Virus record (IMG/VR): IMGVR_UViG_3300008253_000002
Location: 1 to 37,395 of that record
Strand: one strand, 5' to 3'
Source: a virus
Taxonomy: Duplodnaviria > Caudoviricetes
DNA: 37,395 bases
Part shown: piece after piece, positions 1,096 through 33,975 of the stretch
Layout of the letters: every line of letters begins with the position of its first letter
Position numbering within the stretch: the stretch's first letter is position 1
Made by a program: the position numbers and the translations under genes
Notes under the pieces: generated by a model
Seen by the model: only the letters and a program-made list of their open reading frames with translations
Told to the model about the DNA's origin: nothing
Database searches by the model: none

Positions 1096-1105
1096 GGTTT
1101 AATAC

Positions 1106-6407: not shown

Positions 6408-6409
6408 TC

Positions 6410-7396: not shown

Positions 7397-7405
7397 GAGA
7401 TTAAT

Positions 7406-8128: not shown

Positions 8129-8757
8129 GTATACTAAGGAAAGCGGCAAAAGGGTTCTTTGAAGGTGCTGGAGAGTTTCAGAAGGAAGTCCTTAAAGATC
8201 AGATGGCTAATCGTGGGTGGATGCGTAGGCAGAAATACCTTGAAGGTGTTGAAGCCGCAAAATACGCCCGTAACAGAAGCGGTCAACAAGAAGATTGGGA
8301 GAATCGGGCGGATATTACGCGTAAGAGTAATCTATCAGTAAGAGCGACTAAGTTAGCTAGTACCTTACTATCTGCTGGATCGAATAAATATAAGTTCGAC
8401 AACACGGGTAATTTGCGTGGGAATGATGTTACTGCTGTAGCGCAGTTAATAGATGGGTTCATGAGAGGTAGTTATACCAACGGCAAACCTGTGCCTGAAG
8501 CCCAAGCAAGTGAATTAGCAATGAGTGTAATTACCTCTAAAATGCGTGGTGTGGACGACAAGTCACCATACCCACACATACCATCAAGCGAGGTCATAGA
8601 TCTGATTAGTGGCACTACCAAAAATCCCTCACCAAACTTGCCAGTTACCCCAGATCAGCAAGCGATGTTGGATATGGATAATGCGCCAAAAACTCCTAAG
8701 ATTGAACCACAACAAAGCAAGAATCGTACTCAAGGTAGTGGTCTTTTTGGTCTGTAA
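8125..8757 (+). CDS. Probable DNA ejection/internal virion protein, 210 aa
   Basis: ATGA overlap with the upstream gene and AGGAGG RBS; amphipathic N-terminus; no Cys; directly precedes the giant gene. Confidence 0.6.
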   Translation: MSILRKAAKGFFEGAGEFQKEVLKDQMANRGWMRRQKYLEGVEAAKYARNRSGQQEDWENRADITRKSNLSVRATKLASTLLSAGSNKYKFDNTGNLRGNDVTAVAQLIDGFMRGSYTNGKPVPEAQASELAMSVITSKMRGVDDKSPYPHIPSSEVIDLISGTTKNPSPNLPVTPDQQAMLDMDNAPKTPKIEPQQSKNRTQGSGLFGL

Positions 8758-11800: not shown

Positions 11801-14800
11801 AGACCAAACCAAAAGGGTTGGTAATATATCGCCATCTGATCAGAAGTTTTTTAGGGAGTTGACCAAGAAATACAATGTAACCGATGTGTTTGAGGTTGGT
11901 GGTAATTTGTATAAATCACAAGGCACGACCTACCCAGTAAGGGTTATTAAGATAGAGGGTAAAACACCAACATCAGATGAGACCAGACTATCTTGGCTTA
12001 GATCTGGGGATGGTCTTGATACACACGTAGATAGATTTACAACATGGGACGAGGTATATGAAAGAAGCACAAGAAAAACTGTGGTATCCGAACCATCCGG
12101 AGATGAGTCACTCATCAAAGATGGCGATGGCGCATTGGACGGACAGACCCCCGAAGTCATTACTCCAGATAAAAAAGAGAGTGGCTTACAAAATAAGACA
12201 ACTACTGGAGGAAGCGGAAGCGGAGGGGGTGTTGGAACAGGAGATCCTAAGGTTGACGGAAGACCTAGTACCGGAGATACACGACCTGATGTTGGATCAC
12301 CCGACATCGGAACTGGAGATCCCACTGGAGGAATCGGACTCACTGATGTACCTGATGTCGCACTTCCCGACAAACAACCTACAGGGGATACCGACACAGG
12401 GAAAAATGTATCAAGAGATAGTACAGGAGATAGCGGAACAGGATCTACACCTGATGATGGAGCAACTAAGCGCGTCACTGAGGGAGTAACACCTAAAGCT
12501 AAAGATGGGTCAAGTCTATCTCCTGAACTACAGGAGAAGTTGGACAGTGGTATGAACACCATTTTCGATATATTAGTGGATGTCACTAAGACGCAAACAC
12601 TCACTCCTGAAGAAAAAGCAAAGTTATTTCCTGCGTTAGCTAAACTTTTCGAAGTTGCCATCTCTGCTGGGTACACAAAATTTAAAGAGGCGACAAAGTT
12701 TGTGTTGGCTCAGATATCTAAAGCACTCGGTGTTGTCATGGCGAAGGCTATAGAAATAACTGAGATGATGGGTGTGTATCAAGCGGTTGCAGATCCTAAT
12801 AGCGAGGGTACAACCTCTATCATCGAGTTAATTACTAAAGATGGTGGGTTTGTTGACGCTGATGGGAAACCTTCAACTGAGGTTATGCACTCTGAGTTGT
12901 TAGATACTGTTGAAGATGTGATAGTAGAAGAGTCTACTGACGAGCAAGGTACTCAACCTGATAAAGTAGAAGAGCAGGGGTCAGATTACCAAGTACCCTA
13001 CCCAGTTAAGAGTCGTGGGTTCAACGAGTCCGTACTCATACCAGTAGCACTGAAAGAACCAACGGAGCGTTTCCTGAATAAACTGGAGTCAGAGGTAGGT
13101 GACATTGACCAGTATGTCATGGAGGAATTAGGGTACAAATCCGTTGATGAACTCTGGAAAGGGCTTATGGGGTTACAGGTCGATGGTGTAGCCTCTGCTA
13201 TATATAACATCAATAACGGTGGCGCGACAATCATTGCCGACCAGACGGGTGTTGGTAAAGGTCGACAAGCCGCGGCTCTCATCAGATACGCTAAGAAGAT
13301 CGGCAAAATACCTGTGTTCGTAACGATAGACCCTAACCTATTCACGGATATGTGGGATGACCTTGCTGATATAGGAACAACCGATATTGTACCGTTCATC
13401 TTTAATGATAAAGAGGGCATAACGGTTAAGGTCACAGAGGATTTATCTGATGCTATAGCATCTATCGAAACACAAGTAAGTAATTGGGAGATAACCACCT
13501 CAGAGGCGGATATAATAATAGATGGCATGATTGCTGGCAATAAGCCAACCTCTAAACTCATACACGTTACTAAAGGTGTAAAACGCAAACAGACATTTGA
13601 AAGTATTATTGAAACTGGTGAGTTGCCCGATGGTATTAACTCCCTGTTCTTCACGTACTCACAGATCACCTCGGACAACATCCAGCGGAAAGTCGTAGAG
13701 GCTATAGCGGATAGAGCATTGTTCGTCTTGGACGAGGCTCACAATATAGCAGGGGAGAAAACGAGAAAGGTTAATAAGGAAGATCCTAAAGTTACTGGTG
13801 CTGGATTCATGACTGATGTCATTTCTGGCAAACCTACCGTGTACCTATCTGCCACATTTGCTAAGACCCCAGACAATCTGGGCGGGTTCATGAATACCGA
13901 CTTGCGGATAGCTGTTCGTAAAGAAGGTGACATAGGTTCAGCGTTAGCTGTTGGTGGCATCCCACTACAGACAATATCTACGTCCACCCTTGCAGAATAT
14001 GGTCAGGTTATGCGTAGGGAGCGTAGTTTTAAAGGCATCGAGGTTAACAAGACAGTATTAACCGACCAGAAGGAGCATCACGCAGAGTTATTTGATGCCG
14101 TCACCACTGTCTTACGAGCCATTATTGAAGCAGATAGATCGTTCCACGACAATGACATCCATGCCGCTAATAAGGTTCTCAAAATGCAGTTATCTAGTGT
14201 TGGGGCTAGTAAATCAGTAGCACCTACACTAGACCACACATCCTTTAGTTCTACTGTACACAACTACATCAACCAAATACTGATGGCAGTCAAGGTAGAA
14301 GATGCTGTGGCGTGGGCTTTAGAGGCTCATAGTAATGATGAGAAGATTGTCATCGGCATCCAGAATACCATGATGAGTTTTATAGAGCATTACTCATCTG
14401 AGAATGGGTTAGTAAATGGTGATGTTATTGAGGCTAATTTCTCTGATGTATTGACGCGTGCATTAGATAGAACACTTCTTGTGAAAGAGAAAGGCTCGCT
14501 AGATGACCCAAGCCCATTCCCAATTTCCAAGTTATCGAAGACAACTAGCGATGCGTATGACAAGGCGTACTCGGCAATCAACAATCTGGTAGGTGATCTT
14601 GAAGAGTTAGTTATCCCCATATCACCCATAGATTACCTTATACGAAAACTCTCTGACCATAATATAAATATGGGTGAGATCACAGGTCGTACTATTCGTT
14701 TGAACTATGATAACAGTCTAGGTAGTGTTGATGGTGATATTGGCGTACCAACACTTGACTCTAGACCGAAACCTGACAAGCGCGGTATTGTAGATGACTT

Positions 14801-17800
14801 CAACTCTGGTGTGTTAGATGGTCTGATTGTTAATCAGGCAGGATCAACAGGTCTTAGCATCCACGCATCAGAGAAGTACGATGACCAAAAAGTTCGTCAT
14901 ATGTTGGTACTACAACCAATGGGTGACATTAACAGATTCATGCAGTTACTCGGTAGGATCAATCGCACAGGTCAGGTCAGACTACCTAAGTACACGTTAT
15001 TAAGTACCGCACTTCCAGCCGAGATCAGGGCAGTTATTGTTCTGGCTCGTAAACTAGCGTCACTTAATGCTAACACCTCTGCTAATGACAAGTCTGATGT
15101 ATCAGTTGATGCACCTGACATTTTCAACAAGTACGGTGATGAGATAGTAAATGATTTCTTAGTAGACAACCGTGAAATAGCAGAAGTCCTTGGTCTACAT
15201 AAAAATATGGTTACAGAACCAGATAAAGAATCACAGATTGATATAGCTAGGAAGTTTACTGGTAGAGCCGCCCTCCTAGACACCGACAAACTAGACGCTA
15301 TATACCGACAGATTAATTCTGATTATAAGGATAATATAGATTACCTAAACACTGTCGGTCAAAACGAACTCACAACACAAGTTTTAGACCTCAAGGCTAA
15401 GATACTTTTCTCAATAGTATTTCTTGAGGGTAGAGATCCGACTCATCTGTTCGGGGTTAACACAATCCTGCACAAAGTTAGCATGAAGTCACAGGGTAAA
15501 CCACCTAAAGGAAAAGATGTGGCGTATGCCATATCTAAATCGTTAGGTGATACGGGTTCTCCCGAAGCTTTTGCTAAGACCATACTAGACTCAAAACTTA
15601 AGGCAGATAAAGATGCTGAGTATACTATCTCTATGGAGGCTAATTTAACAGCGTTAGGTCAACTTAAAAAGGAACTAGAGTATGAGGAAAGGATAGCCAG
15701 ACGGCACAAAGCGATAGCTAGAACGGTCACAGAAGACCCCGTTGATTATAAAAAAGAGATAAAAGCAATTGAGACCGCAATTGAAGATCAAGATATTCAG
15801 TTGGGTGCTAACCAACACATCACCAACATAACAACACAAGCAATTACGTCCATCTTCACTGTCGGTCGTGCTGTGAAGTTGGATATTGATGGTGACATCA
15901 TGCATGGGATTGTTGTGGATGTTAGAGATTCGCACCAGACAGGTATTGGATCACCGTACACTCTAGGTAAAACCTCAGTGACATTTATGGTCGCTAGTGG
16001 TATGCGCCAGATCAAATTACCCCTAACAAAGTTAATAAACCCACTTACAGGATTTCCACAAAAGGGTTCTGTTGTAGTAGATCTAGGCAAGAATATAGTA
16101 GAAGAAGGAGTTAAATCTGCTGGTGGTTCTGGTAAATCTTCCGCAAAATTACATAAGAACATCACACTGCTAGCCGATCTTTTAAAACCTATATTCGATA
16201 AGAAAGCCAACCTTGAACTTAGAGAAGAGCGGGTTATAGCCACGGGTAATCTTATAGCTGTGGCAAGTAAGTTAAATGGCACTGTGATTAGATTTACCGA
16301 TGAGCATGGCGCTGTCCATACTGGATTCTTACTCTCTAAACAGTTTGCTAAAAACTTTGATATGTCATCAGACTCGTCACAGCCATTCCTGTTACTTAAG
16401 CCTGAGTACATAACGAATTTCTTAAGTGACTACCAGAAAGATTGGTGGGATAACGAGAGAATTGGCCCACGTCGTGCGGTGAAACACCCATTCTCACCCA
16501 CCACAGCTATACACTCCCCGACAAGGGCAGTCCAGATAGTCCCACACGATGGGATAATGAAAATAGTAATTAATAGTAAGGCGGGTAAAGACGCACTACC
16601 ACTTACTAAAGCCGCTAAGAAACAAGAGTTTAACGCGGTTCTTCACTCTAAGCGTTTGAAAGACAGTGGGTTGCTGTTTGCTGGTAGGAGTGGTAGTTCA
16701 ATGTCTGCCGTGTTCTCAACCGAGAATATGCATGAAGTTATAACTACCCTGATTGGTAATGATGAGGTCAAGGGTCTAGTCGATCTCTACGCAATGGGGT
16801 CTTCCCGAGATGCGTTCATCAAAGCTGGTATGCCAGAAGCCAAGCCTGCTGAAAATACATTTGAGACTAAAGTAGAGCCTAAATCTGAGGATGATAATTC
16901 TCCAGAGATACTATCGAGAATCATGGGGTCTTCTAGAGATCCACAGTTTGGTGACTCCATGTCTACGGACGAGGTTGGGGTAGCGGCACAACGCATGGTG
17001 GCGGAACTCAAACTACACGATAGCGTTGACTCCCCTAGAATCCAAGTATACGCGACACAAGTTGAGGCATTTGGATCTGAAGCCACAGTAGATAAAGTTG
17101 GTATTCGTGCTGGTGGTTACGACCCAGTTCACAATGTGGTGATCTTGATTGCGGAGCATATGCACAGTGAAGAAGATGTGCGCTCCACTATGCGCCATGA
17201 GGTCATCGCTCACTACGGTCTGAACCTACTAGATCCGAAAGAGAAGAAGTCAATTATAGATAAGATTAGTGCATCACGGAAAGTCTTGTGGATGTCTAAA
17301 ATCTGGAAGAAAATTGACGAGCGATACGGAGATTCCCCAGAGTCAGTAAAAGCAGAAGAAGTCTTAGCCTACCTTGCCGAAAGTAAACTTGGGAAAGCGC
17401 AAGAATTATTCATGAAGATCGCATCCTTCATAGCGAAGGTGTTGCGTAAGATGGGGTTCTTTAAAGGTAAGACCACAGTCGCAGAACTGCACAGCATTAT
17501 CAATAGACTAGCCATGCGTATCAGAGAGAAACGTCATCGGTACGAGACTAACTCTGAGAACTCCCAGCAAGTTATGTTTATGAACCGTGGTCGTGGTGGC
17601 AATACGTTTGCCGAATCATTGAGCAACACCCATGCGTTTCTCCGCAGGAAATTCACGGATAGTCTGCAACCCATAGCTGATCTACAAGACTCTTACGGAG
17701 AGGTATTACCTGACGAACAGGATGTACACGGACATGAGAAGGTGATGAGAGGTCAGGTTGGTACTGGGGTAGAGGATTTTACGAATGGTAAGTACAAACA

Positions 17801-20519
17801 GTTAATAAGTGTGATGAATAAACATGGGATTAGTCTTGATGATTTAGACCTCTTCGTCTATGTCAAACACGCTGATGAGCGGAACACCTACATTGCCTCT
17901 ATTAATGACGGTATGCCTGATGGTGGGTCTGGTCTGTACACGAATCCGTTGGAGGTCACTGACAAGCATCTGGAAAAGTTACTCAAGGAAGAGGAAACAG
18001 TAGATAGATTAAGACTAGATATCAACTCTGCTATCAATGGTCTGTCCCCAACAGAGTGGTTGAACGAGTTACAAGACAATAACCCACAGACGCATGAAAA
18101 CTTACTTGAAGCCGCTCAGATCGCTTGGAATATAAATCGTGATACGTTAGCGGAGCTAAAACGCGGTGGTATTATCAGTGAAAAAGTAAAAGATATATTA
18201 ACAGCACGAAATCAATACTATGTCCCATTGAAAGGTGGCGATCAGTATGAGACTACATCTGGTAGTGGTAGTAAGTTCTCTATCTTGGGTACTGGTCTTG
18301 GTAAGGCTATGGGTAGACGCTCAATGGCAGAAAGTCCTATTATCCACACGATTGCTGGTCGCATGGATTCAATAGTTAGAGTCAATAAGAACTTGGTTGG
18401 TAACAAGGTTGTTGAGTTAGTCATGGCTCACCCAGACAAGAAGTTATGGAGTATGGCTAGTACCCACTTTAAGTCATACGTCAGTCTTGAGCGTGAAGGT
18501 ACTGAGGGTGGTGTTGGTGCTGGTGAGATGTTCTTTGGTATAGACTCGGAAGAGTTAGCGGCACTTAAAGATCAGGTCGTTGATTCAGCAATAGACAAGA
18601 ACCGAGTTATCCGCGCCATAGAAACAACAGATGTAGACACAGGGGACGTTACTAAGGTTCGTAAAGTTGTCATGATAAAAGACAATTCCTATGTCTATAA
18701 GGATTCTACTTTCACTACTATGTTTGACGGTAAAGTTATCGCTGTCACGATCCACGATAAGTTAGTATTGAATGCCTTGAAAGGGTCGATGGTCAGTGAT
18801 GAATCAGACATCATGCGGGTATTCCAAATACTCAGTAGCTATCAACGATTCCTCTCCAAAATGTACACTAGCTACAGCCCTAACTTCGTAGGCACTAACG
18901 CTCAACGTGACATTGAGTCTATGCTGATTAATACGGTTGGTGGCGCGGAGTTCTCTGAAGGTTCTACCCAAAGTGACTTCGCTATGCGCGCTATCAAAAA
19001 CATTAAAGATGCTTTCTTCGGTATACGAGACTTTCAAGCTGGGAAAAACACTACGTGGGCTAAAAACTATAAGCAGATGCGTAAGGCTGGTGGGTCTATG
19101 AGTTACGCAAACCTACGCGATGCTGATGCTCTTATGAAAGAGGTTATGAATGACCTAAATAGGTATGGAACTATCCACGGATCTATGTTGGCGACAGGCG
19201 GTAGTGTCTTTAAAGCGATAGACAACTTCAATAGTGCTATAGAAAATACCGTAAGATTATCTGTGTTTGAAGCGGGTATTCATTTCGGACTCTCTAAACT
19301 TAAGTCAGCTAAACTATCCAGAGACATTTCTGTTGACCACGGTAAGAAAGGTGAATGGGGTCAGGTTATCGGTGCATTATATATGTTCGGACCGACTACT
19401 ATTCAGAGTGGTGTTAACCTAATACACAGACTATTCACATCCCATAGATACCAGAAGGTTGTGGCGTTGCTCATTGGTCTTGGGTTCATCCTAGCAATGA
19501 AGAACTCTTTAGACGGTGGTGAGGACGAGGATGGCAACCCATACTGGGATCAGATACCACACCATTATAAGCGATCACGATTAATATATCTGTTCGATGA
19601 CGGGACTAGCTGGAACTTACGTCTTCCATACGGTGCGGCTATCTTCCCATACATTGGTACATTGATGCATGAAGCGGCAACAAAACCCAATACGTCTATA
19701 CCAGACATTGCAGAAAAGTTAATACTATCCGCATCCGCAAACTTCAATCCACTTGGTGGTGGGGATTTTATAGACGCAATCACCCCAACCGCACTTAAAC
19801 TTATTGTCCAACCGTATAGAAATGTAAATTGGATGGGTACAAATGTCTACCCGTCAGGCCAGTATGATGACCGCAACAAAATGGATCACCTTAAGACTTG
19901 GGACTCAACAAACAAAACACTTAAAAGTATAATGAAAGCGTTCAATGACCTCAGTATAACTGATAATCCTGACAGTGTATTTTATAACGACACCTACGAT
20001 ACTAACCAATCTGGGTTTATAGATGTGTCCCCTGAAGTTGTGAAGCTAGCGTTCTCGCACCTCACTGGTGGGTTTGGGTCATCTATCGTAACACTAGGTA
20101 AGTTAGGTACGAAGATAGCTGAAGGTGAGGGTGGTGACATTGGTTGGAACGAAGTCCCTGTAGTACAAACCCTCACGATGTCGTGGGAGGCAGACCCACT
20201 TGATATGAAGGCTACACGGGATGAATACTATAGCTTGAAAGAAGCCGCAAAAACAATATCTAGTGGCTATGATTTGCGTACAAAAGATGGTCAGAAATAC
20301 CGCGAGGATCACTCTAACATTATAAACCTTAATAGCATGACTAGGCGTTATGACGAGGACATTAGCTACCAAAAAGGTGAATTGAAAGGGTTAGACCCAC
20401 TAAGCGATAAATATAAAAGCATTAGATCTAATATAAAACATCGGTATAATAGCTTTATAGGGGAGTATGAAAAAGCCTATGTCGAAGACGAAGAATACCG
20501 TAGGAACCAGTCGCGTTAA
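8805..20519 (+). CDS. Giant polyvalent (DarB-like) virion-delivered protein: Gly-rich hydrophobic N-terminus, amino-DNA methyltransferase, Strawberry-notch-type SF2 helicase, zincin metallopeptidase motif, LPD38-like C-terminus; 3904 aa
   Basis: MTase: QYSTP, YEPTAGNG (~11510), VNELD, ANPPFG (~11690). Helicase: ADQTGVGKGR (~13240), LDEAH (~13730), SAT, GEITGR, AGSTGLSIHA, QLLGRINRTGQ (~14950). Peptidase: RHEVIAH (~17195) plus AEEVLA. C-terminus: YWDQIP...RLPYG...NFNPLGG. Confidence 0.88.
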   Translation: MANSENQLSTEEYERILGNITSFGGTSNKLAEDSHKERMRELEEAYNPDHSTFLANHFKHGLQRDGNSLQLTAAGFTGQTDHAIDTILAQNQYDFDHPNDLPTDRFYKAYEKAEDPIDVGKAVYDEFKGATGLLAENMSQYASHVPAMVAGGFTGAKIGSVGGPPGALAGGTIGTIAGGGAVSVALEYGSAVRGAVNTYLIERGLDPLDRDNIAKAIAEGDLLNTERVPAATKGLILGLVDRLSLGMMGKVASGSSHAITKGLKAAGIQGGSEFTGELLGNLAQEIARDPDKPLIDHNLAWQDATLEGLIGVGASTIEISALSMLNNKGRDNVMRGGEAPYDFDGFTSRYDSSQPNDPSPNPEDTVQPQDIDGQKLIESEQIVADQQSAGDAYNGVNSAPTPVVPINDDTPSSTTTESSDAQHLRDLLNKAQTPDPTPTTPETPIVVADEGDGVITVDPQGDTTGGIIPDAVEPEQPEDPVTTEDTQAKNSFPINNFKVGSDTDWTTNAFLGMIQLAKKHGINNITNNYGVEVDSENGVFAIKSNETDEVLTDDEWANLIKSGGQIVDSVPEENQADIDKKELASASRSQKQRDKWKDQDIHEAKNRTWVWTKGRAEKNQINRGLEDTHHIDTRPHNGETEYILRKNRPPSEDFTWVGAERNTDDGVFGYVRIDSGDAGTILRQLGYSGEPTTMPDDFDIARTYGSGTPISTGDQVYQVSITDFENLVGKKEGGDTSGSLQETEIQEEGQEETKVIPTSGRLEAESIDAYKTRLKQALSDAIDGDGIKNNNALKKIMQGVSDNPKAIPDSLEQKDAQELIEVILVDRAHKISRGEGTLREKFDAIIALTAKIPNLNIRTSESMDKQQYSTPAPLAYAVSIMSGVAESEDGNPYVAGEQPTIYEPTAGNGMLLIGSERDNYTFVNELDPNRVKNLKSAGFTNVWNENILTDTPTNDIFEVVVANPPFGKHGMLSNIDQIILKKSMERLEDDGTAVFIISGDQTKRVGNISPSDQKFFRELTKKYNVTDVFEVGGNLYKSQGTTYPVRVIKIEGKTPTSDETRLSWLRSGDGLDTHVDRFTTWDEVYERSTRKTVVSEPSGDESLIKDGDGALDGQTPEVITPDKKESGLQNKTTTGGSGSGGGVGTGDPKVDGRPSTGDTRPDVGSPDIGTGDPTGGIGLTDVPDVALPDKQPTGDTDTGKNVSRDSTGDSGTGSTPDDGATKRVTEGVTPKAKDGSSLSPELQEKLDSGMNTIFDILVDVTKTQTLTPEEKAKLFPALAKLFEVAISAGYTKFKEATKFVLAQISKALGVVMAKAIEITEMMGVYQAVADPNSEGTTSIIELITKDGGFVDADGKPSTEVMHSELLDTVEDVIVEESTDEQGTQPDKVEEQGSDYQVPYPVKSRGFNESVLIPVALKEPTERFLNKLESEVGDIDQYVMEELGYKSVDELWKGLMGLQVDGVASAIYNINNGGATIIADQTGVGKGRQAAALIRYAKKIGKIPVFVTIDPNLFTDMWDDLADIGTTDIVPFIFNDKEGITVKVTEDLSDAIASIETQVSNWEITTSEADIIIDGMIAGNKPTSKLIHVTKGVKRKQTFESIIETGELPDGINSLFFTYSQITSDNIQRKVVEAIADRALFVLDEAHNIAGEKTRKVNKEDPKVTGAGFMTDVISGKPTVYLSATFAKTPDNLGGFMNTDLRIAVRKEGDIGSALAVGGIPLQTISTSTLAEYGQVMRRERSFKGIEVNKTVLTDQKEHHAELFDAVTTVLRAIIEADRSFHDNDIHAANKVLKMQLSSVGASKSVAPTLDHTSFSSTVHNYINQILMAVKVEDAVAWALEAHSNDEKIVIGIQNTMMSFIEHYSSENGLVNGDVIEANFSDVLTRALDRTLLVKEKGSLDDPSPFPISKLSKTTSDAYDKAYSAINNLVGDLEELVIPISPIDYLIRKLSDHNINMGEITGRTIRLNYDNSLGSVDGDIGVPTLDSRPKPDKRGIVDDFNSGVLDGLIVNQAGSTGLSIHASEKYDDQKVRHMLVLQPMGDINRFMQLLGRINRTGQVRLPKYTLLSTALPAEIRAVIVLARKLASLNANTSANDKSDVSVDAPDIFNKYGDEIVNDFLVDNREIAEVLGLHKNMVTEPDKESQIDIARKFTGRAALLDTDKLDAIYRQINSDYKDNIDYLNTVGQNELTTQVLDLKAKILFSIVFLEGRDPTHLFGVNTILHKVSMKSQGKPPKGKDVAYAISKSLGDTGSPEAFAKTILDSKLKADKDAEYTISMEANLTALGQLKKELEYEERIARRHKAIARTVTEDPVDYKKEIKAIETAIEDQDIQLGANQHITNITTQAITSIFTVGRAVKLDIDGDIMHGIVVDVRDSHQTGIGSPYTLGKTSVTFMVASGMRQIKLPLTKLINPLTGFPQKGSVVVDLGKNIVEEGVKSAGGSGKSSAKLHKNITLLADLLKPIFDKKANLELREERVIATGNLIAVASKLNGTVIRFTDEHGAVHTGFLLSKQFAKNFDMSSDSSQPFLLLKPEYITNFLSDYQKDWWDNERIGPRRAVKHPFSPTTAIHSPTRAVQIVPHDGIMKIVINSKAGKDALPLTKAAKKQEFNAVLHSKRLKDSGLLFAGRSGSSMSAVFSTENMHEVITTLIGNDEVKGLVDLYAMGSSRDAFIKAGMPEAKPAENTFETKVEPKSEDDNSPEILSRIMGSSRDPQFGDSMSTDEVGVAAQRMVAELKLHDSVDSPRIQVYATQVEAFGSEATVDKVGIRAGGYDPVHNVVILIAEHMHSEEDVRSTMRHEVIAHYGLNLLDPKEKKSIIDKISASRKVLWMSKIWKKIDERYGDSPESVKAEEVLAYLAESKLGKAQELFMKIASFIAKVLRKMGFFKGKTTVAELHSIINRLAMRIREKRHRYETNSENSQQVMFMNRGRGGNTFAESLSNTHAFLRRKFTDSLQPIADLQDSYGEVLPDEQDVHGHEKVMRGQVGTGVEDFTNGKYKQLISVMNKHGISLDDLDLFVYVKHADERNTYIASINDGMPDGGSGLYTNPLEVTDKHLEKLLKEEETVDRLRLDINSAINGLSPTEWLNELQDNNPQTHENLLEAAQIAWNINRDTLAELKRGGIISEKVKDILTARNQYYVPLKGGDQYETTSGSGSKFSILGTGLGKAMGRRSMAESPIIHTIAGRMDSIVRVNKNLVGNKVVELVMAHPDKKLWSMASTHFKSYVSLEREGTEGGVGAGEMFFGIDSEELAALKDQVVDSAIDKNRVIRAIETTDVDTGDVTKVRKVVMIKDNSYVYKDSTFTTMFDGKVIAVTIHDKLVLNALKGSMVSDESDIMRVFQILSSYQRFLSKMYTSYSPNFVGTNAQRDIESMLINTVGGAEFSEGSTQSDFAMRAIKNIKDAFFGIRDFQAGKNTTWAKNYKQMRKAGGSMSYANLRDADALMKEVMNDLNRYGTIHGSMLATGGSVFKAIDNFNSAIENTVRLSVFEAGIHFGLSKLKSAKLSRDISVDHGKKGEWGQVIGALYMFGPTTIQSGVNLIHRLFTSHRYQKVVALLIGLGFILAMKNSLDGGEDEDGNPYWDQIPHHYKRSRLIYLFDDGTSWNLRLPYGAAIFPYIGTLMHEAATKPNTSIPDIAEKLILSASANFNPLGGGDFIDAITPTALKLIVQPYRNVNWMGTNVYPSGQYDDRNKMDHLKTWDSTNKTLKSIMKAFNDLSITDNPDSVFYNDTYDTNQSGFIDVSPEVVKLAFSHLTGGFGSSIVTLGKLGTKIAEGEGGDIGWNEVPVVQTLTMSWEADPLDMKATRDEYYSLKEAAKTISSGYDLRTKDGQKYREDHSNIINLNSMTRRYDEDISYQKGELKGLDPLSDKYKSIRSNIKHRYNSFIGEYEKAYVEDEEYRRNQSR

Positions 20520-23543: not shown

Positions 23544-24236
23544 CTAAAATGGTACACGATCATCTGATGCTACTTTAGGCGGCACTATCTCACCTTCCTT
23601 TGGTATATCTGCTATGGTTTTGTATCCAGTAGCCTTAGCCAGTTCTACCGTATCAACCCAACCCATGATATTTATCTCTGGTGCAGGGACAGACTTGGTT
23701 TTGTTACGAGCCTTCTTACTTGGCATATCCCAAGAAGTTAAAGACACTATAGGCATCTGAAACTTACCAACCTTTCTGGCATTTTGCATATACCCTTTTA
23801 TCAATTTAGATACAGCTACCGTTCCCCCAACCGTGGACGTTGAATACTTATACAACTCCCCTGTCTGAAAGTCCGTGAAGTCAATCTTCAACACGTTCTT
23901 CCACCCATCCCCATCAGAGTAAACACCACTCTTGTCTGGAGAATAGTCTTTTAACTCTGACTTTTTAGGGAAATTATCCGCACCAGAGTCAACATCCTTG
24001 TACAACGCTGTAACCTCTGACGGTACGCTACCATCAACGTAGCAAAGAAACCCTTTTGCCGCACTATTGTGTACGTCTACAACAAATATCTGCTCTGGCA
24101 ATATTGGAGATTGATCCTCACCATATAACCAATCACCTGCCTTGAACTTGGTGTAGTAAAACGCACCACCCTCATCTGCCACACCCTCATCAAATGCCGA
24201 CATTCCTAACTCACTCACTTTCATTAAATCACTCAC
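23544..24236 (-). CDS. Probable single-stranded DNA-binding protein
   Basis: Aromatic beta-rich core (YTKFKAGDWLYG, YSTSTVGG, PIVSL); acidic tail DDRVPF resembling the SSB tip DDDIPF; adjacent to the exonuclease. Confidence 0.65.
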   Translation of the reverse strand: MSDLMKVSELGMSAFDEGVADEGGAFYYTKFKAGDWLYGEDQSPILPEQIFVVDVHNSAAKGFLCYVDGSVPSEVTALYKDVDSGADNFPKKSELKDYSPDKSGVYSDGDGWKNVLKIDFTDFQTGELYKYSTSTVGGTVAVSKLIKGYMQNARKVGKFQMPIVSLTSWDMPSKKARNKTKSVPAPEINIMGWVDTVELAKATGYKTIADIPKEGEIVPPKVASDDRVPF

Positions 24237-27004: not shown

Positions 27005-27325
27005 ATGTCAAAAAGACAAAGACCACTTATGCAGACCACCTACCTCGGAGATGCCGAAGAGGACAGGATTGAAGACCTTATTAAAGAGCGAGTTAAAGAG
27101 GATAGAAGACAAAGGAATGAACCCGAAATTAAGATTGATTGGACATACTCTACTATAAAGCAGTTCTGTCAACGGTATCCTGTCTTCACGGAAGGTGGTG
27201 TCCGATTCATGCTCCACGAAGAATCCAAACATCATCTGCGGGAGCGTGGTTGTGTTGTCCGTGTCGGTGGAAGAATATTGGTGCATGAGAAAAAGTTCTT
27301 AAAGGCACATGGATTAGAGTATTGA
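27005..27325 (+). CDS. Xis/MerR-like winged-helix DNA-binding protein
   Basis: TIKQFCQRYPVFTEGGVRFML...VVRVGGRILVHEKKF; GAGGTG RBS. Confidence 0.7.
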   Translation: MSKRQRPLMQTTYLGDAEEDRIEDLIKERVKEDRRQRNEPEIKIDWTYSTIKQFCQRYPVFTEGGVRFMLHEESKHHLRERGCVVRVGGRILVHEKKFLKAHGLEY

Positions 27326-27350
27326 TAACATCACTAGCTAGTGCTATAAT
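27322..27350 (+). promoter_or_regulatory. Near-consensus sigma70 promoter with a palindromic operator-like spacer
   Basis: TTGATA-N17-TATAAT with TGn extension; perfect palindrome CACTAGCTAGTG at 27332-27343. Confidence 0.8.
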
Positions 27351-27384
27351 ATTAAAACTATCAAAGCACAGGGAAAGTTAGAGC

Positions 27385-27651
27385 ATGACCAAATTTAAGG
27401 AATTTTATCTGGGGTTATCTACGCATGAACGCAGAGAGTTAGCCAAACGCATGGACACCTCAGAACAATACTTGTACCAACTCAGTACAGGTTTTAGGCG
27501 TTTTGGTTACAAGACCCTAGAGCGTGTTGAGTCTGCTACATGGGGTTATATCACGCCCAATGACTTGATAGTCACCACACCACCACCAAGAGTCAGAACA
27601 CCCTTATTAAGAAAGAAAGTGTCTGAGTTGATGCGCTCTGGCAACCCTTGA
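27385..27651 (+). CDS. Cro/YdaS-like HTH regulator
   Basis: RRELAKRMDTSEQYLYQLSTGFRR...VESATWGYITPNDL. Confidence 0.82.
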   Translation: MTKFKEFYLGLSTHERRELAKRMDTSEQYLYQLSTGFRRFGYKTLERVESATWGYITPNDLIVTTPPPRVRTPLLRKKVSELMRSGNP

Positions 27652-27669
27652 CTTACTTAATGAAGTCGC

Positions 27670-27701
27670 ACCCCGATCCTGTGTATCGGGGTTTCTTTTT
27701 T
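27670..27701 (+). terminator. Intrinsic terminator between the Cro-like gene and the replicase
   Basis: ACCCCGAT-cctgtgt-ATCGGGGT followed by TTCTTTTTT. Confidence 0.8.
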
Positions 27702-27723
27702 ATGGGGATAAAAGGATAAAAAC

Positions 27724-30700
27724 ATGGATAAGATCACCGCACAATTTGTAGCAGAGTCAATATCACCAGACCTAGCTAAAGTCGAAAAAGACGGTTCATG
27801 GGTTACGCAATGTGTACACCCTAACCACCCTGACAATGACCCCTCTCTGGTTATCACCGATAAGAAAGGTGGTGGCATACTGGTGTTCTGCCGTGGAGGT
27901 TGTAAGCAGAGCGAAGTCGTTGCAGAACTCCAGAACAGGGAACTGTGGGCAACCAAGTCAGACCTGAGAACAAGTGTTAAGGGCAAGGGTAGCCGTAGCA
28001 CCGTGACTTCTAAGTACCGATACTATTCTGAGGATGGGGAATTACTGTTTGAAAAGCAACGTAAAGAATCATCCGCAGGGAAAAAGACCTTTGTCATCGG
28101 TACATATAATGAAACGGGTGCTTTTATCTACGGCAAACCCAAAGGACACCCACCCCTGTACAACCTGAGTGCAGTTATATCTTCACAGGAAGTGTACATC
28201 GTGGAGGGTGAGAAAGATGTTGATACCTTAACTGACCTTGGGATAACTGCCACCACTAACTTTGACGGTGCAGGGAGGTGGTCTATTGACCACTACAACC
28301 CACCGCTCAAGGGCAAAGATATTATCTTAGTACCTGACAATGACACCGCAGGGCGTAAGCACATGAACGTAGTGGGTATGTCCGTTATGCTTGTCGCTAA
28401 TAGTGTTAAGGTGCTGATGTTAGATGGACTCCCTGACAAGGGGGATGTCTCCGATTGGCTGAATGGTGGGCGTAGCATCGTGGAGTTTCTAGCCCTCTCG
28501 TCCGATGCTCCACCATTCTCCCCAGATGACGCTGTGCCGTGGCGTGACAGGCTATTGATGAGTGACAAGGGGGTTGTTGAGAAGATCGCTAAGAATGTCC
28601 ACATAGCCTTTAGACACGCACCACAGTTTAAGAATAAGTTGCGGTTCAATCTGTTCACCCACACCGTAGAGATCAGCGACAGTGGTGATGATCTGCCGTG
28701 GGCAAGTTCTGGTGAGTGGACTGACCATGACACCATGATGGCAAATGTAGAGTTGAATGACATGGGCATCTTGGTGGGTAAGAACCTGACCGATGATGGG
28801 ATGCTGTCAGTTGCAAGATTGTCTGAGAACTCCTATGACCCCTTGAAAGATTACTTAGAGGGTGTTGAGTGGGATGGTGTGCCTAGAGTTGATGATTGGC
28901 TACTTACCTATGCTAACTGTACTGACCGCAAGGACTACCTTAACATCATTGGTGCTAAGTGGTTGATTGGTGCTGTAGCCAGAGGTCTTAATAACAACCC
29001 GAATGGGGTTAAAGTAGACACTATGCTCATCTTGGAATCTGCACAGGGGCGTAAGAAAAGTACCCTTGTAGAGAGTTTATGCCCCGATAAGACATGGTTC
29101 TGCGATGGGATTGAGGGTGATCTTGGGAACAAAGATGCTGTGATTCTGTTGCAAGGTGCGTTCATCGTGGAAATTCCTGAGTTGGGAGCGTTCTCCAAGA
29201 CCGCAATCAACCAACAAAAGTCTTTTATTAGTCGTAAGGTTGATAAGGTGAGGTTGCCGTTTGAGCGGCACAGTTCGTCATTGCCCAGACGATGTGTGTT
29301 TATTGGTACGCATAACCCCAATGGTGAAGAGTATCTGCGTGACCCATCAGGGAATCGTAGGTTTCTTCCTTGTGAGGTTGGTGCTACCGTGGATATTGAG
29401 GGTTTGGAACGTGACAGAAACCAACTCTGGGGTGAGGCGGTACACCGCTATAAATCAGGTGAATCTTGGTGGGTGGACGATGAGAGTATGGCAGAAATTG
29501 TCAGGTCAGAGCAGAGTAGTCGGTTCTTAGACCATGACATTATGGACGTTGTGGATATGTATATTACACAGCAACCAATCATTCTAGATGCCACGGATAA
29601 AAGGAATATTGACATTGAATGGCACGACCGTGATGAGTCTTTGACAGTCTTTTTCCCCAAACTATTCTGGTTGGAAGTGTATGCGGAAGAGTTCGCTACA
29701 GGGTGTCAAAAACAGCTTAAAGATGGTATCAATCGGGGCATGGCACACCGTGGGTGGGTGAAGGGAACTTACTGGTGTGGTGGGTTGAAATCTACCTGTA
29801 AAGGGTTCAAAAAGACCACAAAAGAGGGTGGCGATGAGGATTTTGGTAAGGTTTTGGGAAAGGTGCTGAAACCATTACTAAAAAGTAATGGTTCTAGCGT
29901 GGATGAAAAAAACCTTACCAAAAACACAAAACCTTACCAAAACCTTACCAAAAAACCCGAAAACCCCGAAAACTCGGAGTTTATCGGAAAAACGCTGAAA
30001 CCATTACTAAATAGTAATGAATCTGATTCTGGTAAGGTAAGGAAAACGGTAAGGTCGGAAAAAACGCTGGAAGCCACGGAATCCGTGGCAATAATAAAAC
30101 CTTACTTACCTTACTATAAAAAGAGTAATATTATTAAATATAATAATAATGTAAATAGTAATGACATAAATTATTCTCACAGGATGGTTATGAAAACGGG
30201 TTATTTTGGTAAGGTTGGTAAGGTCGAGAAAAACGGTAATTATTTTTCTGTTGTCCGAGGGGATTCTGAGAAACCTTACCAACCTTACCGAAAAAACAGC
30301 ATAACTTTTGTCGAGACCGAATTTTTGTTATCCACGTTCGATTCGTTGGTTGGAATTGACTTTGAAACCACAGGTTTATCGCCACGAATAGGTCATGTAA
30401 GATCGGCTCAATTATGGTGTGGTGATGTGGGTATTTTTGTCGATTTTGGTGCTGACCTTGGTTATGAGAATCGGGATAAGGAGGGAGTGATCCGTGGGAA
30501 CTTAGCGTTCCGAGATTTCTGCCAAGCGATCAGTAAACATACACATGGGTTCGTGGCACATAATGCTCAGTTTGAACACAAGTGGATTCGCCACGCTTGT
30601 CCAGAGGTTGGGGATAGGATTGTTATCCACGATACGATGTTAGCTTATGGTTCAATGTATGGTGGGGCGATTTCGTTAGCTGACGCTTGTAAACGGTTTC

Positions 30701-32091
30701 TTAAAGTGGATTTGCCCAAGACCCAACAGAAAAGTAATTGGAACGCCTTGGAGTTAACTGACACACAAATATCTTATGCTATGGCAGATTCCGAGATTGT
30801 TCTGGATTTGTGGAAGGTGTTGGGTAAGCAGTTAAATGACCGTGGGATGGTCAAAGGGTATAAGTTGTTGTTGAGTAGTGTCGCTCCTATTGACCGTATG
30901 ATGAGTAACGGTATGCCTTTTGATATTGTGGGTCATGAGCGTGTTCTTAGACGCTTTGAAGAGGGTGTTGAGTTAGCATCTAGGAGTCTTAATCGCATCT
31001 GTCCTGAGATTGCGAATTGGGATTCACCGACACAGGTTGTTAAGTGGGTTAATGCCAAGTTATCGGAGTGTCCTTTAGAGGATAGACGCTCTGCTTTGGC
31101 AGGGTGGGAAAAGACAGGTGGTGGTGCTTTAACATTGGGTAGGGCTGTTTTAACTGAGCGGTTGTCTGGTGGGCATATTAAGGATGGGTATTTGCGTAAG
31201 GTGTTGTCTAGGTATCTCGCTCGTCAACGAAGGAAGAAAATTAAGAGTACATACGGCAGTTCGTTACGAAAATTGGTTAGTGATGGTCGTATTTATGGTC
31301 ATCTGAGGATTATGGGTGCGGTGACAGGACGAATGTCATCATCTGAGCCTAATCTACAGAATATGCCGTCAGGGGCGTTTAGAGGGTTATTTAAAGCATC
31401 CGAGGATTGTAAGATTTTAGTCTGCGATTACTCACAAATTGAGGTTCGTGTGGGTGGTATGTTGGCAGATTGTGATGTACTTGGTGATATTTTCTCTAAG
31501 GGGATTGATGTGCATCGAGGTACTGCGGCTAAAATGTTCCGTGTTTCAGTTGATGAGGTCACTAAGGCACAACGTAGAGCCGCAAAAAGTTTAACTTTTG
31601 GTATGCAATACGGCATGGGTGCTAGAAGTATTGCTAAGTTGATGGATTGTACTGTTGAAGAGGCTAATGGGTTCATCAGGTTGTGGAAGTCAACCTACCC
31701 TAAAGTATCGGTCTGGCGGGATGCTCAAGCTAAGATAGGGTCACAAGGTGGGTTATTAACTACAGCAGGGGGGAGAACTATTTATGTGAACAGGGGTGTT
31801 TCACCATCATGTTGTTACAATTATCCTGTACAGGGGTCAGCTAGTGATGTGATGTATGCCGCAATCATTGAGTTGGACAGGTTGCTAAGTTGGGAGGATA
31901 TTGACTGCCGACCTATTGCGGTGGTTCATGATGAGATTGTTATGGAGTCAGCAGATCGTGATGTTGACAGGAGTAAAGAGTTACTGGAGATGGCAATGTT
32001 AAATGGGTTTAAGCAGATATTCCCTGATGGTGATATTACAGGGTTGTTGGACGGTGGTTGTTTAGTAGGTGATTCGTGGGGGGTTAAGTGA
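27724..32091 (+). CDS. Fused replicase: Zn-finger/TOPRIM primase, VapE-type P-loop helicase, 3'-5' exonuclease and family A DNA polymerase, 1455 aa
   Basis: Zn: CVHPNH...FCRGGC. TOPRIM: IVEGEKD, PDND, GDVSDW. VapE: WDGVPR, AQGRKKST, IVEIPEL, FIGTHN, DPSGNRRF. Exo: DFETTG, HNAQFE, YAMAD. PolA: TGRMSSSEPNLQN, DYSQIE, RAAKSLTFGMQYG, NYPVQG, VHDE. Confidence 0.92.
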   Translation: MDKITAQFVAESISPDLAKVEKDGSWVTQCVHPNHPDNDPSLVITDKKGGGILVFCRGGCKQSEVVAELQNRELWATKSDLRTSVKGKGSRSTVTSKYRYYSEDGELLFEKQRKESSAGKKTFVIGTYNETGAFIYGKPKGHPPLYNLSAVISSQEVYIVEGEKDVDTLTDLGITATTNFDGAGRWSIDHYNPPLKGKDIILVPDNDTAGRKHMNVVGMSVMLVANSVKVLMLDGLPDKGDVSDWLNGGRSIVEFLALSSDAPPFSPDDAVPWRDRLLMSDKGVVEKIAKNVHIAFRHAPQFKNKLRFNLFTHTVEISDSGDDLPWASSGEWTDHDTMMANVELNDMGILVGKNLTDDGMLSVARLSENSYDPLKDYLEGVEWDGVPRVDDWLLTYANCTDRKDYLNIIGAKWLIGAVARGLNNNPNGVKVDTMLILESAQGRKKSTLVESLCPDKTWFCDGIEGDLGNKDAVILLQGAFIVEIPELGAFSKTAINQQKSFISRKVDKVRLPFERHSSSLPRRCVFIGTHNPNGEEYLRDPSGNRRFLPCEVGATVDIEGLERDRNQLWGEAVHRYKSGESWWVDDESMAEIVRSEQSSRFLDHDIMDVVDMYITQQPIILDATDKRNIDIEWHDRDESLTVFFPKLFWLEVYAEEFATGCQKQLKDGINRGMAHRGWVKGTYWCGGLKSTCKGFKKTTKEGGDEDFGKVLGKVLKPLLKSNGSSVDEKNLTKNTKPYQNLTKKPENPENSEFIGKTLKPLLNSNESDSGKVRKTVRSEKTLEATESVAIIKPYLPYYKKSNIIKYNNNVNSNDINYSHRMVMKTGYFGKVGKVEKNGNYFSVVRGDSEKPYQPYRKNSITFVETEFLLSTFDSLVGIDFETTGLSPRIGHVRSAQLWCGDVGIFVDFGADLGYENRDKEGVIRGNLAFRDFCQAISKHTHGFVAHNAQFEHKWIRHACPEVGDRIVIHDTMLAYGSMYGGAISLADACKRFLKVDLPKTQQKSNWNALELTDTQISYAMADSEIVLDLWKVLGKQLNDRGMVKGYKLLLSSVAPIDRMMSNGMPFDIVGHERVLRRFEEGVELASRSLNRICPEIANWDSPTQVVKWVNAKLSECPLEDRRSALAGWEKTGGGALTLGRAVLTERLSGGHIKDGYLRKVLSRYLARQRRKKIKSTYGSSLRKLVSDGRIYGHLRIMGAVTGRMSSSEPNLQNMPSGAFRGLFKASEDCKILVCDYSQIEVRVGGMLADCDVLGDIFSKGIDVHRGTAAKMFRVSVDEVTKAQRRAAKSLTFGMQYGMGARSIAKLMDCTVEEANGFIRLWKSTYPKVSVWRDAQAKIGSQGGLLTTAGGRTIYVNRGVSPSCCYNYPVQGSASDVMYAAIIELDRLLSWEDIDCRPIAVVHDEIVMESADRDVDRSKELLEMAMLNGFKQIFPDGDITGLLDGGCLVGDSWGVK
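29841..30294. other. Putative replication origin (CCTTACC/GGTAAGG iterons, three hairpins, AT-rich core) inside the replicase ORF
   Basis: 11 exact heptamers in both orientations; hairpins at 29870-29893, 30002-30019 and 30073-30089; AT-rich tract ~30112-30175. Confidence 0.78.
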
Positions 32092-32970: not shown

Positions 32971-33975
32971 TCATAGTTTAAAATCCTTGTTGTTTTGATC
33001 GTCTAAATATTCGTGTATATCGGCTAAACTGAAACCCATGTGTTCTAAAAAATCGTTCGTTGCTCTTGGTCTATTTCTAATGAATATTTCTAACTTGCTT
33101 GCGGTGTGTTGGTAAACTGGTGCTTTAGTTTTGACCTTGATTTTCTTGTGCGTCTTTTTTGGTTTGAGTGGTGGATACGTTACACTTGAGCGATACCCAT
33201 TGGAGTTATACCCATAGTTGGTGGCATATCCCCAATCAATTTCTTCACATGGTTCTTTAAAGACTTGTAAATTATCCCAATCAAATTCTAAAAGCTTATC
33301 TATTAGTTCAAGCATAAAATCTATATCTTGATATTCGTTAGTGGTGTGTTGATTGAAATATCCGACAGATAAATTCACACATTCATTCACTTTAAAACGA
33401 AAACTGGCACTATCAGTTACACTACCCACGGCTGATTGCATTCCAAGGCTTTCATATTGCAAAGCATATTGTGTACTGGCAGTTCGCACCCCTAATTGGG
33501 TTGTGACGATGTCGTTATACCCTTTTCTGTCAAACGATATAGCTTGTGTGATATTGTCCAAACATAGTGTGTTAGCACAGTGTTCTGAGCCGTTACACCC
33601 AATTTCTTCCTCCCTCATGAGGATATACACCCCATTGGGTGGATTGGACGATTTGAGTAGTTGTAGTAAAATGAAGATTCCGGTCGTATCATCCGCTCCG
33701 AGACAATTTGCTGTTGATGATACGACCGAGTACTGATCGTCTATCAGCAATTTTTGTTGTCCACCGATTTGATGTACTGTATCAGTATGGGCTAAAAATA
33801 GTTTATCGGGATTGTCTCCAATCTCACACATAAAATTTCCGAAACTATCCTCGAAACCACCATGCATTTCGATAGTTGGTAATATGAATTTCTCACACCA
33901 AGCATCTTCCTCGACACTCATTGCCGGTCTCATAGTTTTTAACATTTCTAAATATTCGTCTTTTAAGTTTTGCAT
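32971..33975 (-). CDS. M28/M42-like zinc-dependent peptidase/amidohydrolase
   Basis: AHTDTV, LGADD, EEIG, FDRKG and NLSVGYFNQHT metal-ligand motifs. Confidence 0.88.
   Translation of the reverse strand: MQNLKDEYLEMLKTMRPAMSVEEDAWCEKFILPTIEMHGGFEDSFGNFMCEIGDNPDKLFLAHTDTVHQIGGQQKLLIDDQYSVVSSTANCLGADDTTGIFILLQLLKSSNPPNGVYILMREEEIGCNGSEHCANTLCLDNITQAISFDRKGYNDIVTTQLGVRTASTQYALQYESLGMQSAVGSVTDSASFRFKVNECVNLSVGYFNQHTTNEYQDIDFMLELIDKLLEFDWDNLQVFKEPCEEIDWGYATNYGYNSNGYRSSVTYPPLKPKKTHKKIKVKTKAPVYQHTASKLEIFIRNRPRATNDFLEHMGFSLADIHEYLDDQNNKDFKL

Follow-up and report, generated by a model that had tools for sequence, protein, structure and literature searches.

Does one phage protein hold a complete replisome, and would that protein together with 500 bp of DNA be enough for origin-dependent replication in a tube? 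The question is raised by a gene in a marine tailed-phage sequence (Duplodnaviria; Caudoviricetes), IMG/VR record IMGVR_UViG_3300008253_000002, of which positions 1 to 37,395 were analysed as one stretch of 37,395 nucleotides, here called the window. At 27724-32091 on the + strand, a single frame joins the parts of a primase, a helicase, a 3'-5' exonuclease and a family A DNA polymerase (PolA) in one chain, here called the replicase. The gene is real and intact, and the DNA encoding its linker is likely the phage's own replication origin. Together these results favour an intact, tethered primase-helicase-exonuclease-polymerase replisome that loads itself and uses an origin in its own linker DNA, a reading to which we give a probability of roughly 0.6.

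The replicase gene and its domains

The source record is a linear virus fragment of ~62% of a virus genome, and it is contained in 20 runs from seawater, sediment and vent samples (0 of the 20 are listed as RNA, which has no bearing on expression). The frame is stop-free in translation over all of its 1,455 codons and encodes a protein of 1,455 aa (P0001). The assembly was checked on contigs only, in four runs, one of which holds the complete span in one piece: run X2, from a different study, provides a single 7,492-nt contig that covers all 5,001 compared bases with 133 substitutions and 0 gaps, and runs X4 and X8 cover the gene piecewise only. Furthermore, full-length relatives of 1,455 aa exist at 98% and 93% identity (P0002, P0276). 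In the same protein cluster, one 12,049-nt contig carries a 91-93% relative that is interrupted near residue 1192, in the polymerase domain, and is read as two proteins of 1,193 and 259 aa (P0274 and P0278); this break is probably a frameshift or an assembly error, because P0275, P0276 and P0279, which are of the same type, are continuous. Among GenBank phages, none of the 5,000 best-scoring records covers 80% of the replicase in one place. The features of the chain outside its linker are as follows.

27724..32091, + strand: whole replicase open reading frame (ORF), P0001; translation, and an independent contig across the gene
27724..27954, + strand, aa 1-77: zinc-binding domain, DnaG CHC2-like; C30, H35, C56, C60
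27991..28509, + strand, aa 90-262: DnaG-type TOPRIM primase core; E161, D205, D207
28534..29517, + strand, aa 271-598: helical collar and VapE/superfamily 3 (SF3) AAA+ helicase, SaPI1 Rep-like; sequence and structure matches
29518..29823, + strand, aa 599-700: winged-helix domain, predicted to bind the origin; AlphaFold2 model, VIA-align
30346..30834, + strand, aa 875-1037: DEDD-type 3'-5' exonuclease; D879, E881, D1022, Exo II E951
30859..32088, + strand, aa 1046-1455: family A polymerase; motifs A, B and C, Phe at the 762 position

The order of domains is therefore Zn finger, TOPRIM primase, VapE/SF3 helicase, winged helix, linker, 3'-5' exonuclease and PolA. In the primase region, the TOPRIM fold scores below the Pfam gathering threshold (Toprim_4, E 0.0012), but PHROG primase families match aa 84-272 (E 5e-23), Aquifex DnaG (2AU3) matches the TOPRIM region with a family profile (E 3.9e-5), and Foldseek finds DnaG and T7 gp4 primase domains with the structural model (E 4e-6 to 2e-5). 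The catalytic residues E161 and D205/D207 are invariant in alignment A4, as are the putative zinc ligands C30, H35, C56 and C60, whose domain is modelled with a predicted local distance difference test score (pLDDT) of 67-89 per block and is weakly matched over the aa 1-77 region by the Zn domain of Aquifex DnaG. The region thus has the signature of a DnaG-type TOPRIM primase with an N-terminal Zn domain, for which RNA primer synthesis is predicted.

The helicase is assigned with high significance by Pfam (VapE-like, PF05272, aa 378-598, E 4.5e-65). An AlphaFold2 model of aa 1-715, built from a 32-row alignment, has a mean pLDDT of 87.6, and its best Foldseek match is SaPI1 Rep (7PDS, E 3e-30 over 472 columns), which is also matched by sequence (E 3.7e-31); 7PDS is the structure of SaPI1 Rep/PriRep (Qiao et al. 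2022, PMC9371898). Walker A, Walker B, motif C and the arginine finger, which mark a VapE AAA+ domain, are all present, and K445 of Walker A, E483/E486 of Walker B, N531 and R545/R546 are invariant or nearly so in 32 sequences. In addition, the residues R248, Y251 and K253, with which Rep1 binds single-stranded DNA (ssDNA), align with R510, F513 and R515, and the position of F513 is a Tyr in most relatives.

The C-terminal half contains a Pfam exonuclease (DNA_pol_A_exo1, aa 875-1037, E 1.2e-11) and a Pfam polymerase domain (DNA_pol_A, aa 1086-1426, E 1.6e-62). The Exo II residue is usually an Asp, and here it is a Glu (E951) that is invariant in the seven sequences of alignment A1. Motifs A, B and C (D1235; K1288/F1292/Y1296; H1402-D1403-E1404) and Exo I-III are all present, as in a family A polymerase with proofreading. 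The best PDB match of the polymerase is 8JRB (E 4e-43), which we take to be an Aquifex Pol I, followed by Klenow (5e-40) and Prex (1e-27). The Phe at B3 fits cluster 8 of the Prex-group PolAs (Hot Spring 1/Aquificae-like, Czernecki 2023) but is unspecific, and the trees contained no cluster-8 references. The chain has no 5'-3' nuclease or ligase domain.

An earlier note on this DNA had described one uninterrupted 1455-codon frame with motifs for a Zn finger, TOPRIM, VapE, DEDD exonuclease and PolA motifs A, B and C. The frame is confirmed by translation and by the independent contig, which crosses the linker without indels, and the motifs by Pfam, PHROG, Foldseek and single residues, so that the domains and catalytic residues support the proposed primase-helicase-exonuclease-PolA polypeptide. 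Its statement that the leftward operon has no second polymerase agrees with Pfam and PHROG scans of the 27 other ORFs of the window, which found none, within a record of ~62% of the genome. What the note missed were the winged helix and the origin-like linker DNA, which have proved to be the more informative features.

A likely replication origin within the coding sequence

The winged helix directly precedes the linker, which carries repeats. Residues 599-703 fold as a winged helix with a pLDDT of 88 in the AlphaFold2 model; the top 50 VIA-align matches are nearly all winged helices (best Z 5.6, root-mean-square deviation (rmsd) 3.1, 67 aligned residues), and the C-terminal part of 7PDS (343-474) aligns with Z 4.9 and rmsd 4.6 over 91 residues. 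Foldseek returned nothing for this domain at E<0.001, and Pfam has no family that matches it. The features of the linker are the following.

29839..30321, no strand: linker-coding DNA, likely replication origin; 12 ACCTTAC repeats between 29846 and 30288
30111..30150, no strand: core of the likely origin, A+T-rich (37/40)
30184..30192, + strand: in-frame ATGs M821/M823, possible internal start; weak AGGA 5', near the PolA start of split relatives

The word ACCTTAC occurs 12 times in the 534 nt of the linker region (7 on the + and 5 on the - strand) versus 7 times in the other 36,861 nt, and the A+T core is flanked by a pair of + repeats (30099, 30108) and a pair of - repeats (30209, 30218). 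This is the arrangement found in SaPIs, where 6-12 iterons lie directly behind the Rep region and an AT-rich centre has two or more of them to either side, in opposite directions. At the protein level, the linker is rich in K, N and S, and its ~160 codons are unalignable across the family. Each lineage has a repeat word of its own, namely TGGCTCA in loci L081 and L252, GTGACAC in L085, GTGTAGA in L086, CCTCACC in L004 and L098, and GGTGAG in L001 and L002. The excess of repeats exceeds that in at least 499 of 500 triplet shuffles, at one or both word lengths, in eight of nine family loci.

Comparisons of strains suggest that it is the DNA of the linker that is under constraint. In three strain pairs, the repeat bases are the same at 64, 72 and 36 positions and different at none, versus 333/75, 274/30 and 274/122 same/different for the remaining linker bases (18%, 10% and 31% differ; Fisher p 1e-5, 0.0026 and 7e-6). 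In the window's own lineage, conservation of the repeats is read from proteins (the 93% relative) and not from DNA. Substitutions in the linker fall on the three codon positions as 29/33/32, 20/23/32 and 11/6/13, with weak or absent third-position bias, in contrast to the strong bias in VapE (24/15/154, 22/5/108 and 20/16/152). Nevertheless the frame is kept open: none of the seven fused linkers tested, among which L004 and L098 are close kin, contains an in-frame stop, and only 0-15 of 2,000 dinucleotide shuffles of each are stop-free. Similarly, the linker indels of the 93% relative (+3 and -3 residues) are both in frame. Even substitution across codon positions, fixed repeats and an open frame therefore point to selection on the repeat DNA and on read-through, with little on the residues, and the linker DNA is likely the replication origin of the phage. 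In the open-access literature, no paper was found on this replicase family or on an origin that doubles as a helicase-polymerase linker.

The repeat test was also applied to eight unrelated fusions, of which L010, L021, L133, L138 and L259 were negative and Pas55 of phage phiAsp2 was borderline. L010 (6783-11192) and L021 (6983-11479), like L027 (971-5383), encode fusions of ~1,470-1,500 aa that run from Prim-Pol to exonuclease and PolA; in L027 (AEP-type), five GATGTTC words surround an A-rich core 5' of the exonuclease (4 of 500 shuffles), a weaker signal. L164 (6989-12640, +) encodes an unrelated 1,883-aa fusion of a DUF3854 TOPRIM, a DUF927 helicase, an exonuclease and a PolA with an intein-like LAGLIDADG insert, and its linker DNA carries 12 TCCGACC words, with six paired repeats in both orientations (0 of 500 shuffles).

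Fused and split relatives

A protein search gave 262 matches among 7,996 scored, and 120 of these were listed; VapE, exonuclease and PolA occur together in six of the 120 listed, four of them full-length at 38-98% identity. Scans of viral, metagenome and genome contigs, with duplicates merged and counts to be read as minima, found at least five loci with complete fused frames (L004, L081, L085, L098 and L252) plus the 5'-truncated L086 and L097, and at least four with two genes of 787-791 aa and 613 aa (L001, L002, L003 and L093). Fused relatives at 38-42% identity are known from many assemblies. The possibility raised earlier, that homologs might always be split, does not hold, as most are fused and a single sub-clade is split.

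In the split loci, the stop and the new ATG sit in the A+T-rich middle of the linker, and the separate PolA starts ~50 codons ahead of the exonuclease domain. Rooted, the PolA tree groups all 19 family rows in one clade (SH-aLRT 100), within which the split rows nest with the fused P0003, P0004 and L097 (100). The VapE tree likewise unites the split rows with the window, P0003 and P0004/L097 (99), within a larger clade of 15 rows (98) whose remaining members are nearly all fused. An AU (approximately unbiased) test, run unrooted, finds the split rows as one clade, and the direction from fused to split rests on the rooted trees. Because the split rows nest among fused rows in both trees, the split sub-clade derives most simply from the fused gene by one later fission. 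Programmed frameshifting in the split loci was considered and rejected: the PolA frame is open for only 9 nt 5' of its ATG, and the sequence shows no obvious slippery run.

Beyond the family, a profile search of 1.84 billion representatives gave seven VapE-PolA fusions among 30 long proteins that were scanned out of the 150 best matches. Four of the seven are distant (P0130, P0131, P0182 and P0233), stand on long tree branches and likely arose independently; no relative of P0131 was found in viral contigs. In the other 23 of the 30, related polymerases are joined to many different primase-helicase modules. At least six such modules occur on related exonuclease-PolA parts (AEP-TOTE with DnaB, Prim-Pol with PriCT, Zn-TOPRIM with AAA_25, DUF3987, TOPRIM with DUF3631, and AEP with D5; seen among proteins P0136-P0197, P0008-P0012, P0030 and P0084), and in P0184, P0237 and L259 a Zn-TOPRIM is joined straight to PolA without a helicase.

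Proposed mechanism and alternative explanations

By analogy with SaPI1 Rep, its closest solved relative, the VapE part would form a hexamer whose winged helices bind the repeats, with a ring to either side of the A+T core. After melting of this core, each ring would move 3'-5' along the template of the leading strand with no need for a host loader. Since the helicase E1 of papillomavirus moves N-first (PMC6831031), the primases would lead and the polymerases trail: the primases, being N-terminal, would be turned towards the fork and the excluded lagging strand, and directly behind the ring would come the C-terminal polymerases on a flexible tether of 160 residues, one serving the leading strand and the spares Okazaki fragments. 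Host enzymes would have to remove the primers and seal the strands, because the chain has no 5'-3' nuclease or ligase domain. The gene itself may have arisen when a primase-Rep gene was read through into polA across an origin located between the two, with one lineage splitting again at the A+T core.

A more far-reaching version of this mechanism, which we regard as tentative and somewhat short of even odds, places the whole replicon in one gene, with six primases leading and six polymerases trailing an N-first ring. One phage polypeptide would then rebuild the geometry of the eukaryotic CMG-Pol epsilon fork. Read-through of an origin would be a general and repeated route to fusion, with a similar pattern in L164 and, more weakly, in L027, and by binding the DNA that encodes it, the ring would hold down its own production.

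Several points weigh against the tethered, self-loading replisome. The Z scores of the winged helix are modest (best 5.6), and the fold by itself shows no function. In L097 no repeat word reaches significance (159 and 174 of 500 shuffles), and the repeat words were picked from the first member of each strain pair, which favours conservation somewhat. The trees are quick IQ-TREE runs with SH-aLRT support only. The passages of PMC9371898 on SaPI Rep do not state an N-first orientation. GP55, the characterised four-in-one SF3 phage replicase, is described as a dimer, not a hexamer (PMC12205980), and Prex is stated to be proteolytically processed (PMC7689252). Moreover, the whole sub-clade of L001-L003 and L093 lives with two separate genes, so the tether to the polymerase is dispensable, and in-frame ATGs lie near the PolA start of these split relatives in the window, L081 and L252.

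Some of these points suit an account in which the origin is as proposed and the polymerase acts mostly as a free piece, released by an internal start at M821/M823 or by cleavage of the linker, with the fused frame as a polyprotein or minor product. In the window, an ATG stands behind AGGA 44 codons before the exonuclease, and in L081 one stands 46 codons before it; split relatives begin PolA at ~50. The M-V-M-K stretch is unchanged in the 93% relative. A database protein from a 4,061-nt contig, P0126, corresponds exactly to the final 607 aa of the L081 protein and begins at the ATG noted for L081, although this may reflect the choice of a gene caller on a short contig. The processing of Prex and the dimeric state of GP55 fit this account as well. 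However, the Shine-Dalgarno match is only 4 nt long, L085, L086, L004 and L097 offer only GTG/TTG candidates at varying places, and keeping 97-161 origin codons stop-free in many lineages would be costly if the long product were unused. A search for a free PolA of the window's own lineage (aa 820-1200 as query) gave 2 weak matches among 4,166 candidates and no such protein, which proves nothing. On balance, we consider a mostly free polymerase unlikely, although a serious contender. It is quite improbable that the repeats are instead operator sites, hairpins, another DNA or RNA element or a by-product of low complexity, with the origin elsewhere. The K/N/S-rich linker, inverted repeats that could form hairpins, an incomplete genome and a cumulative GC skew that makes no turn at the linker and tracks gene direction would agree with such an explanation, but the repeats lie on both strands and in different frames, their words vary by lineage and are conserved at all codon positions, and, as in the origins of SaPIs, they flank an A+T core and follow immediately on a winged helix of the Rep type. 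Finally, the four related loci that are split at the same place, and a check made on contigs, could raise the suspicion that the fusion is an artefact of assembly or sequencing, or that two genes were recently joined by chance read-through. This is largely refuted by the independent contig that spans the gene without indels, by the fused forms at 38-42% identity in many assemblies and by the nested, derived state of the split forms, and we find it hardly credible.

With a solved and biochemically studied relative of its helicase half, a likely origin readable in the gene and a natural split form, the locus offers a rare clean system for testing whether tethering polymerases to a replicative ring alters processivity or the coupling of leading and lagging strands. 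A replicase that is single-chain, primer-independent, proofreading and strand-displacing and has a defined origin might also prove useful in isothermal amplification and orthogonal replication.

Genomic setting

Neighbouring genes in the family encode an SNF2 helicase, a Cas4/RecE-like nuclease, cI, Cro-like and CII-like regulators, an integrase (L003), terminase, portal and major capsid proteins, and because of these genes the replicase family is assigned to tailed phages that are probably temperate. L252 is a complete-looking 45,410-nt contig with cI, cro, cII, the fused replicase, VRR-NUC, terminases, portal and capsid; it was binned with a Methylophaga genome, a weak hint that Methylophaga is a possible host of this sub-lineage. 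Upstream of the replicase of the window lie the following features.

27322..27350, + strand: strong sigma-70-like promoter match, 11/12, extended -10; consensus match only, 5' of a small ORF
27385..27651, + strand: 88-aa ORF in the cro/cII-like slot of relatives; unnamed PHROG, E 0.009
27670..27702, + strand: intrinsic-terminator-like hairpin between the 88-aa ORF and the replicase start; consensus match only

The slot of the 88-aa ORF is occupied by cI, Cro-like and CII-like matches in L252 and L081. The near-consensus promoter, Cro-slot ORF and terminator-like hairpin at 27322-27702 (+) resemble a pR-cro-tR1 switch, which would gate expression of the replicase.

Elsewhere in the window, a 3,904-aa protein (8805-20519, +) contains methyltransferase-like, Strawberry-notch-type helicase and LPD38 domains, as would a large polyvalent protein that is probably injected; the PHROG matches of the SNF2 gene include DarB-like neighbours. 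A 1,628-aa ORF (1106-5992, +) and four ORFs of 210-333 aa (94-1095 and 6410-8757, +) have no Pfam or PHROG match, and their position suggests that the ORFs of the 94-8757 region are tail and internal virion genes. An ORF of 230 aa (23544-24236, -; phrog_9528) is kept beside the Cas4-like gene in L003, L004 and L252; it has no Pfam match, and the Atlas places it with unnamed viral clusters (0.97) and gives a weak lead to Pam3_Gp34 (0.86), so that the single-stranded DNA-binding protein listed in the earlier gene set is not confirmed. After the replicase, a low-GC leftward block includes a gene for an M28-like peptidase (32971-33975, -).

Comparison with known systems

The combination of parts had been thought undescribed, a claim that fails at the level of labels because Kazlauskas et al. 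2016 (PMC4889955) give Pas55 in their supplement as DnaG (11-224), SF3_VirE (420-700) and PolA (824-1413), with one member. The same work reports two triple fusions, GP55 (SF3, AEP and PolB) and Pas55, and the entry for the latter is bioinformatic and makes no mention of an origin. Pas55, from the Actinoplanes phage phiAsp2 of soil, has 1,415 aa and the same order of parts in one chain as the replicase. Its TOPRIM matches the profile of the replicase family (E 8e-11) and its PolA is 24% identical over 241 aa, but its helicase matches neither PF05272 nor the family's helicase profile (hmmsearch --max, Pfam), no Zn finger was found, and the linker of this high-GC actinophage is acidic and no more than borderline in the repeat test (5 and 70 of 500 shuffles). 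With matches limited to TOPRIM and PolA, the replicase shares the architecture of Pas55 but not its lineage. An experimental study of Pas55 was not found in the open-access literature. As the domain order was noted in 2016, the gain lies in mechanism and testability rather than in a new kind of protein: this locus adds the canonical VapE lineage, with a studied and solved Rep relative, a likely cognate origin readable in the gene and a natural split control.

The iteron origin of phage lambda lies inside the O gene, which follows cro and cII, and lambda O and P occupy the position that the family's replicase gene takes. The slot of O is that of the replicase gene in L081 and L252, although O has no polymerase. 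Prex of the apicoplast, whose helicase is presumably of the T7/Twinkle type (SF4), has a TOPRIM, and 'Pyrovirus' has a DUF927, unlike the VapE of the replicase. Both Prex and the 3173-type polyproteins of 'Pyrovirus' carry a proofreading PolA behind a primase and/or helicase, like the replicase, and 'Pyrovirus' has fused and split forms within one lineage, as in the family described here (PMC10201439, PMC7689252). GP55 of the lactococcal phage 1706 unites helicase, primase, polymerase and proofreading in one protein, as shown biochemically, and its helicase is also SF3, but it differs in its AEP primase, its PolB, its N-terminal helicase and its dimeric state (Zhang et al. 2025, PMC12205980). 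The alpha protein of phage P4 combines a DnaG-type primase, an SF3 helicase and a winged-helix origin binder, but is of the D5 type and has no polymerase (PMC4889955).

A close parallel is found in the SaPI Reps, which are described as hexameric, self-loading 3'-5' SF3 helicases that bind iterons by a C-terminal winged helix. Their origins directly follow rep and consist of 6-12 iterons, two or more per side of an AT-rich centre and oppositely directed (PMC9371898; bioRxiv 10.64898/2026.10.17.759575). SaPI1 Rep and the replicase have in common a homologous VapE-type SF3 helicase, the collar, the ssDNA-binding hairpin residues and the C-terminal winged helix, and in both loci the Rep-coding DNA is followed immediately by opposed iterons with an AT-rich centre between them. 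In contrast, the SaPI origin is non-coding and lies past the stop codon, and SaPIs have no polymerase, encoded or fused, whereas the frame of the replicase runs through the repeats into exonuclease and PolA; furthermore, SaPIs are satellites and the present element is a tailed phage. By this analogy, the replicase would work like a SaPI Rep without being one, and hexamer formation, 3'-5' unwinding and ATP-independent origin binding are predicted for it.

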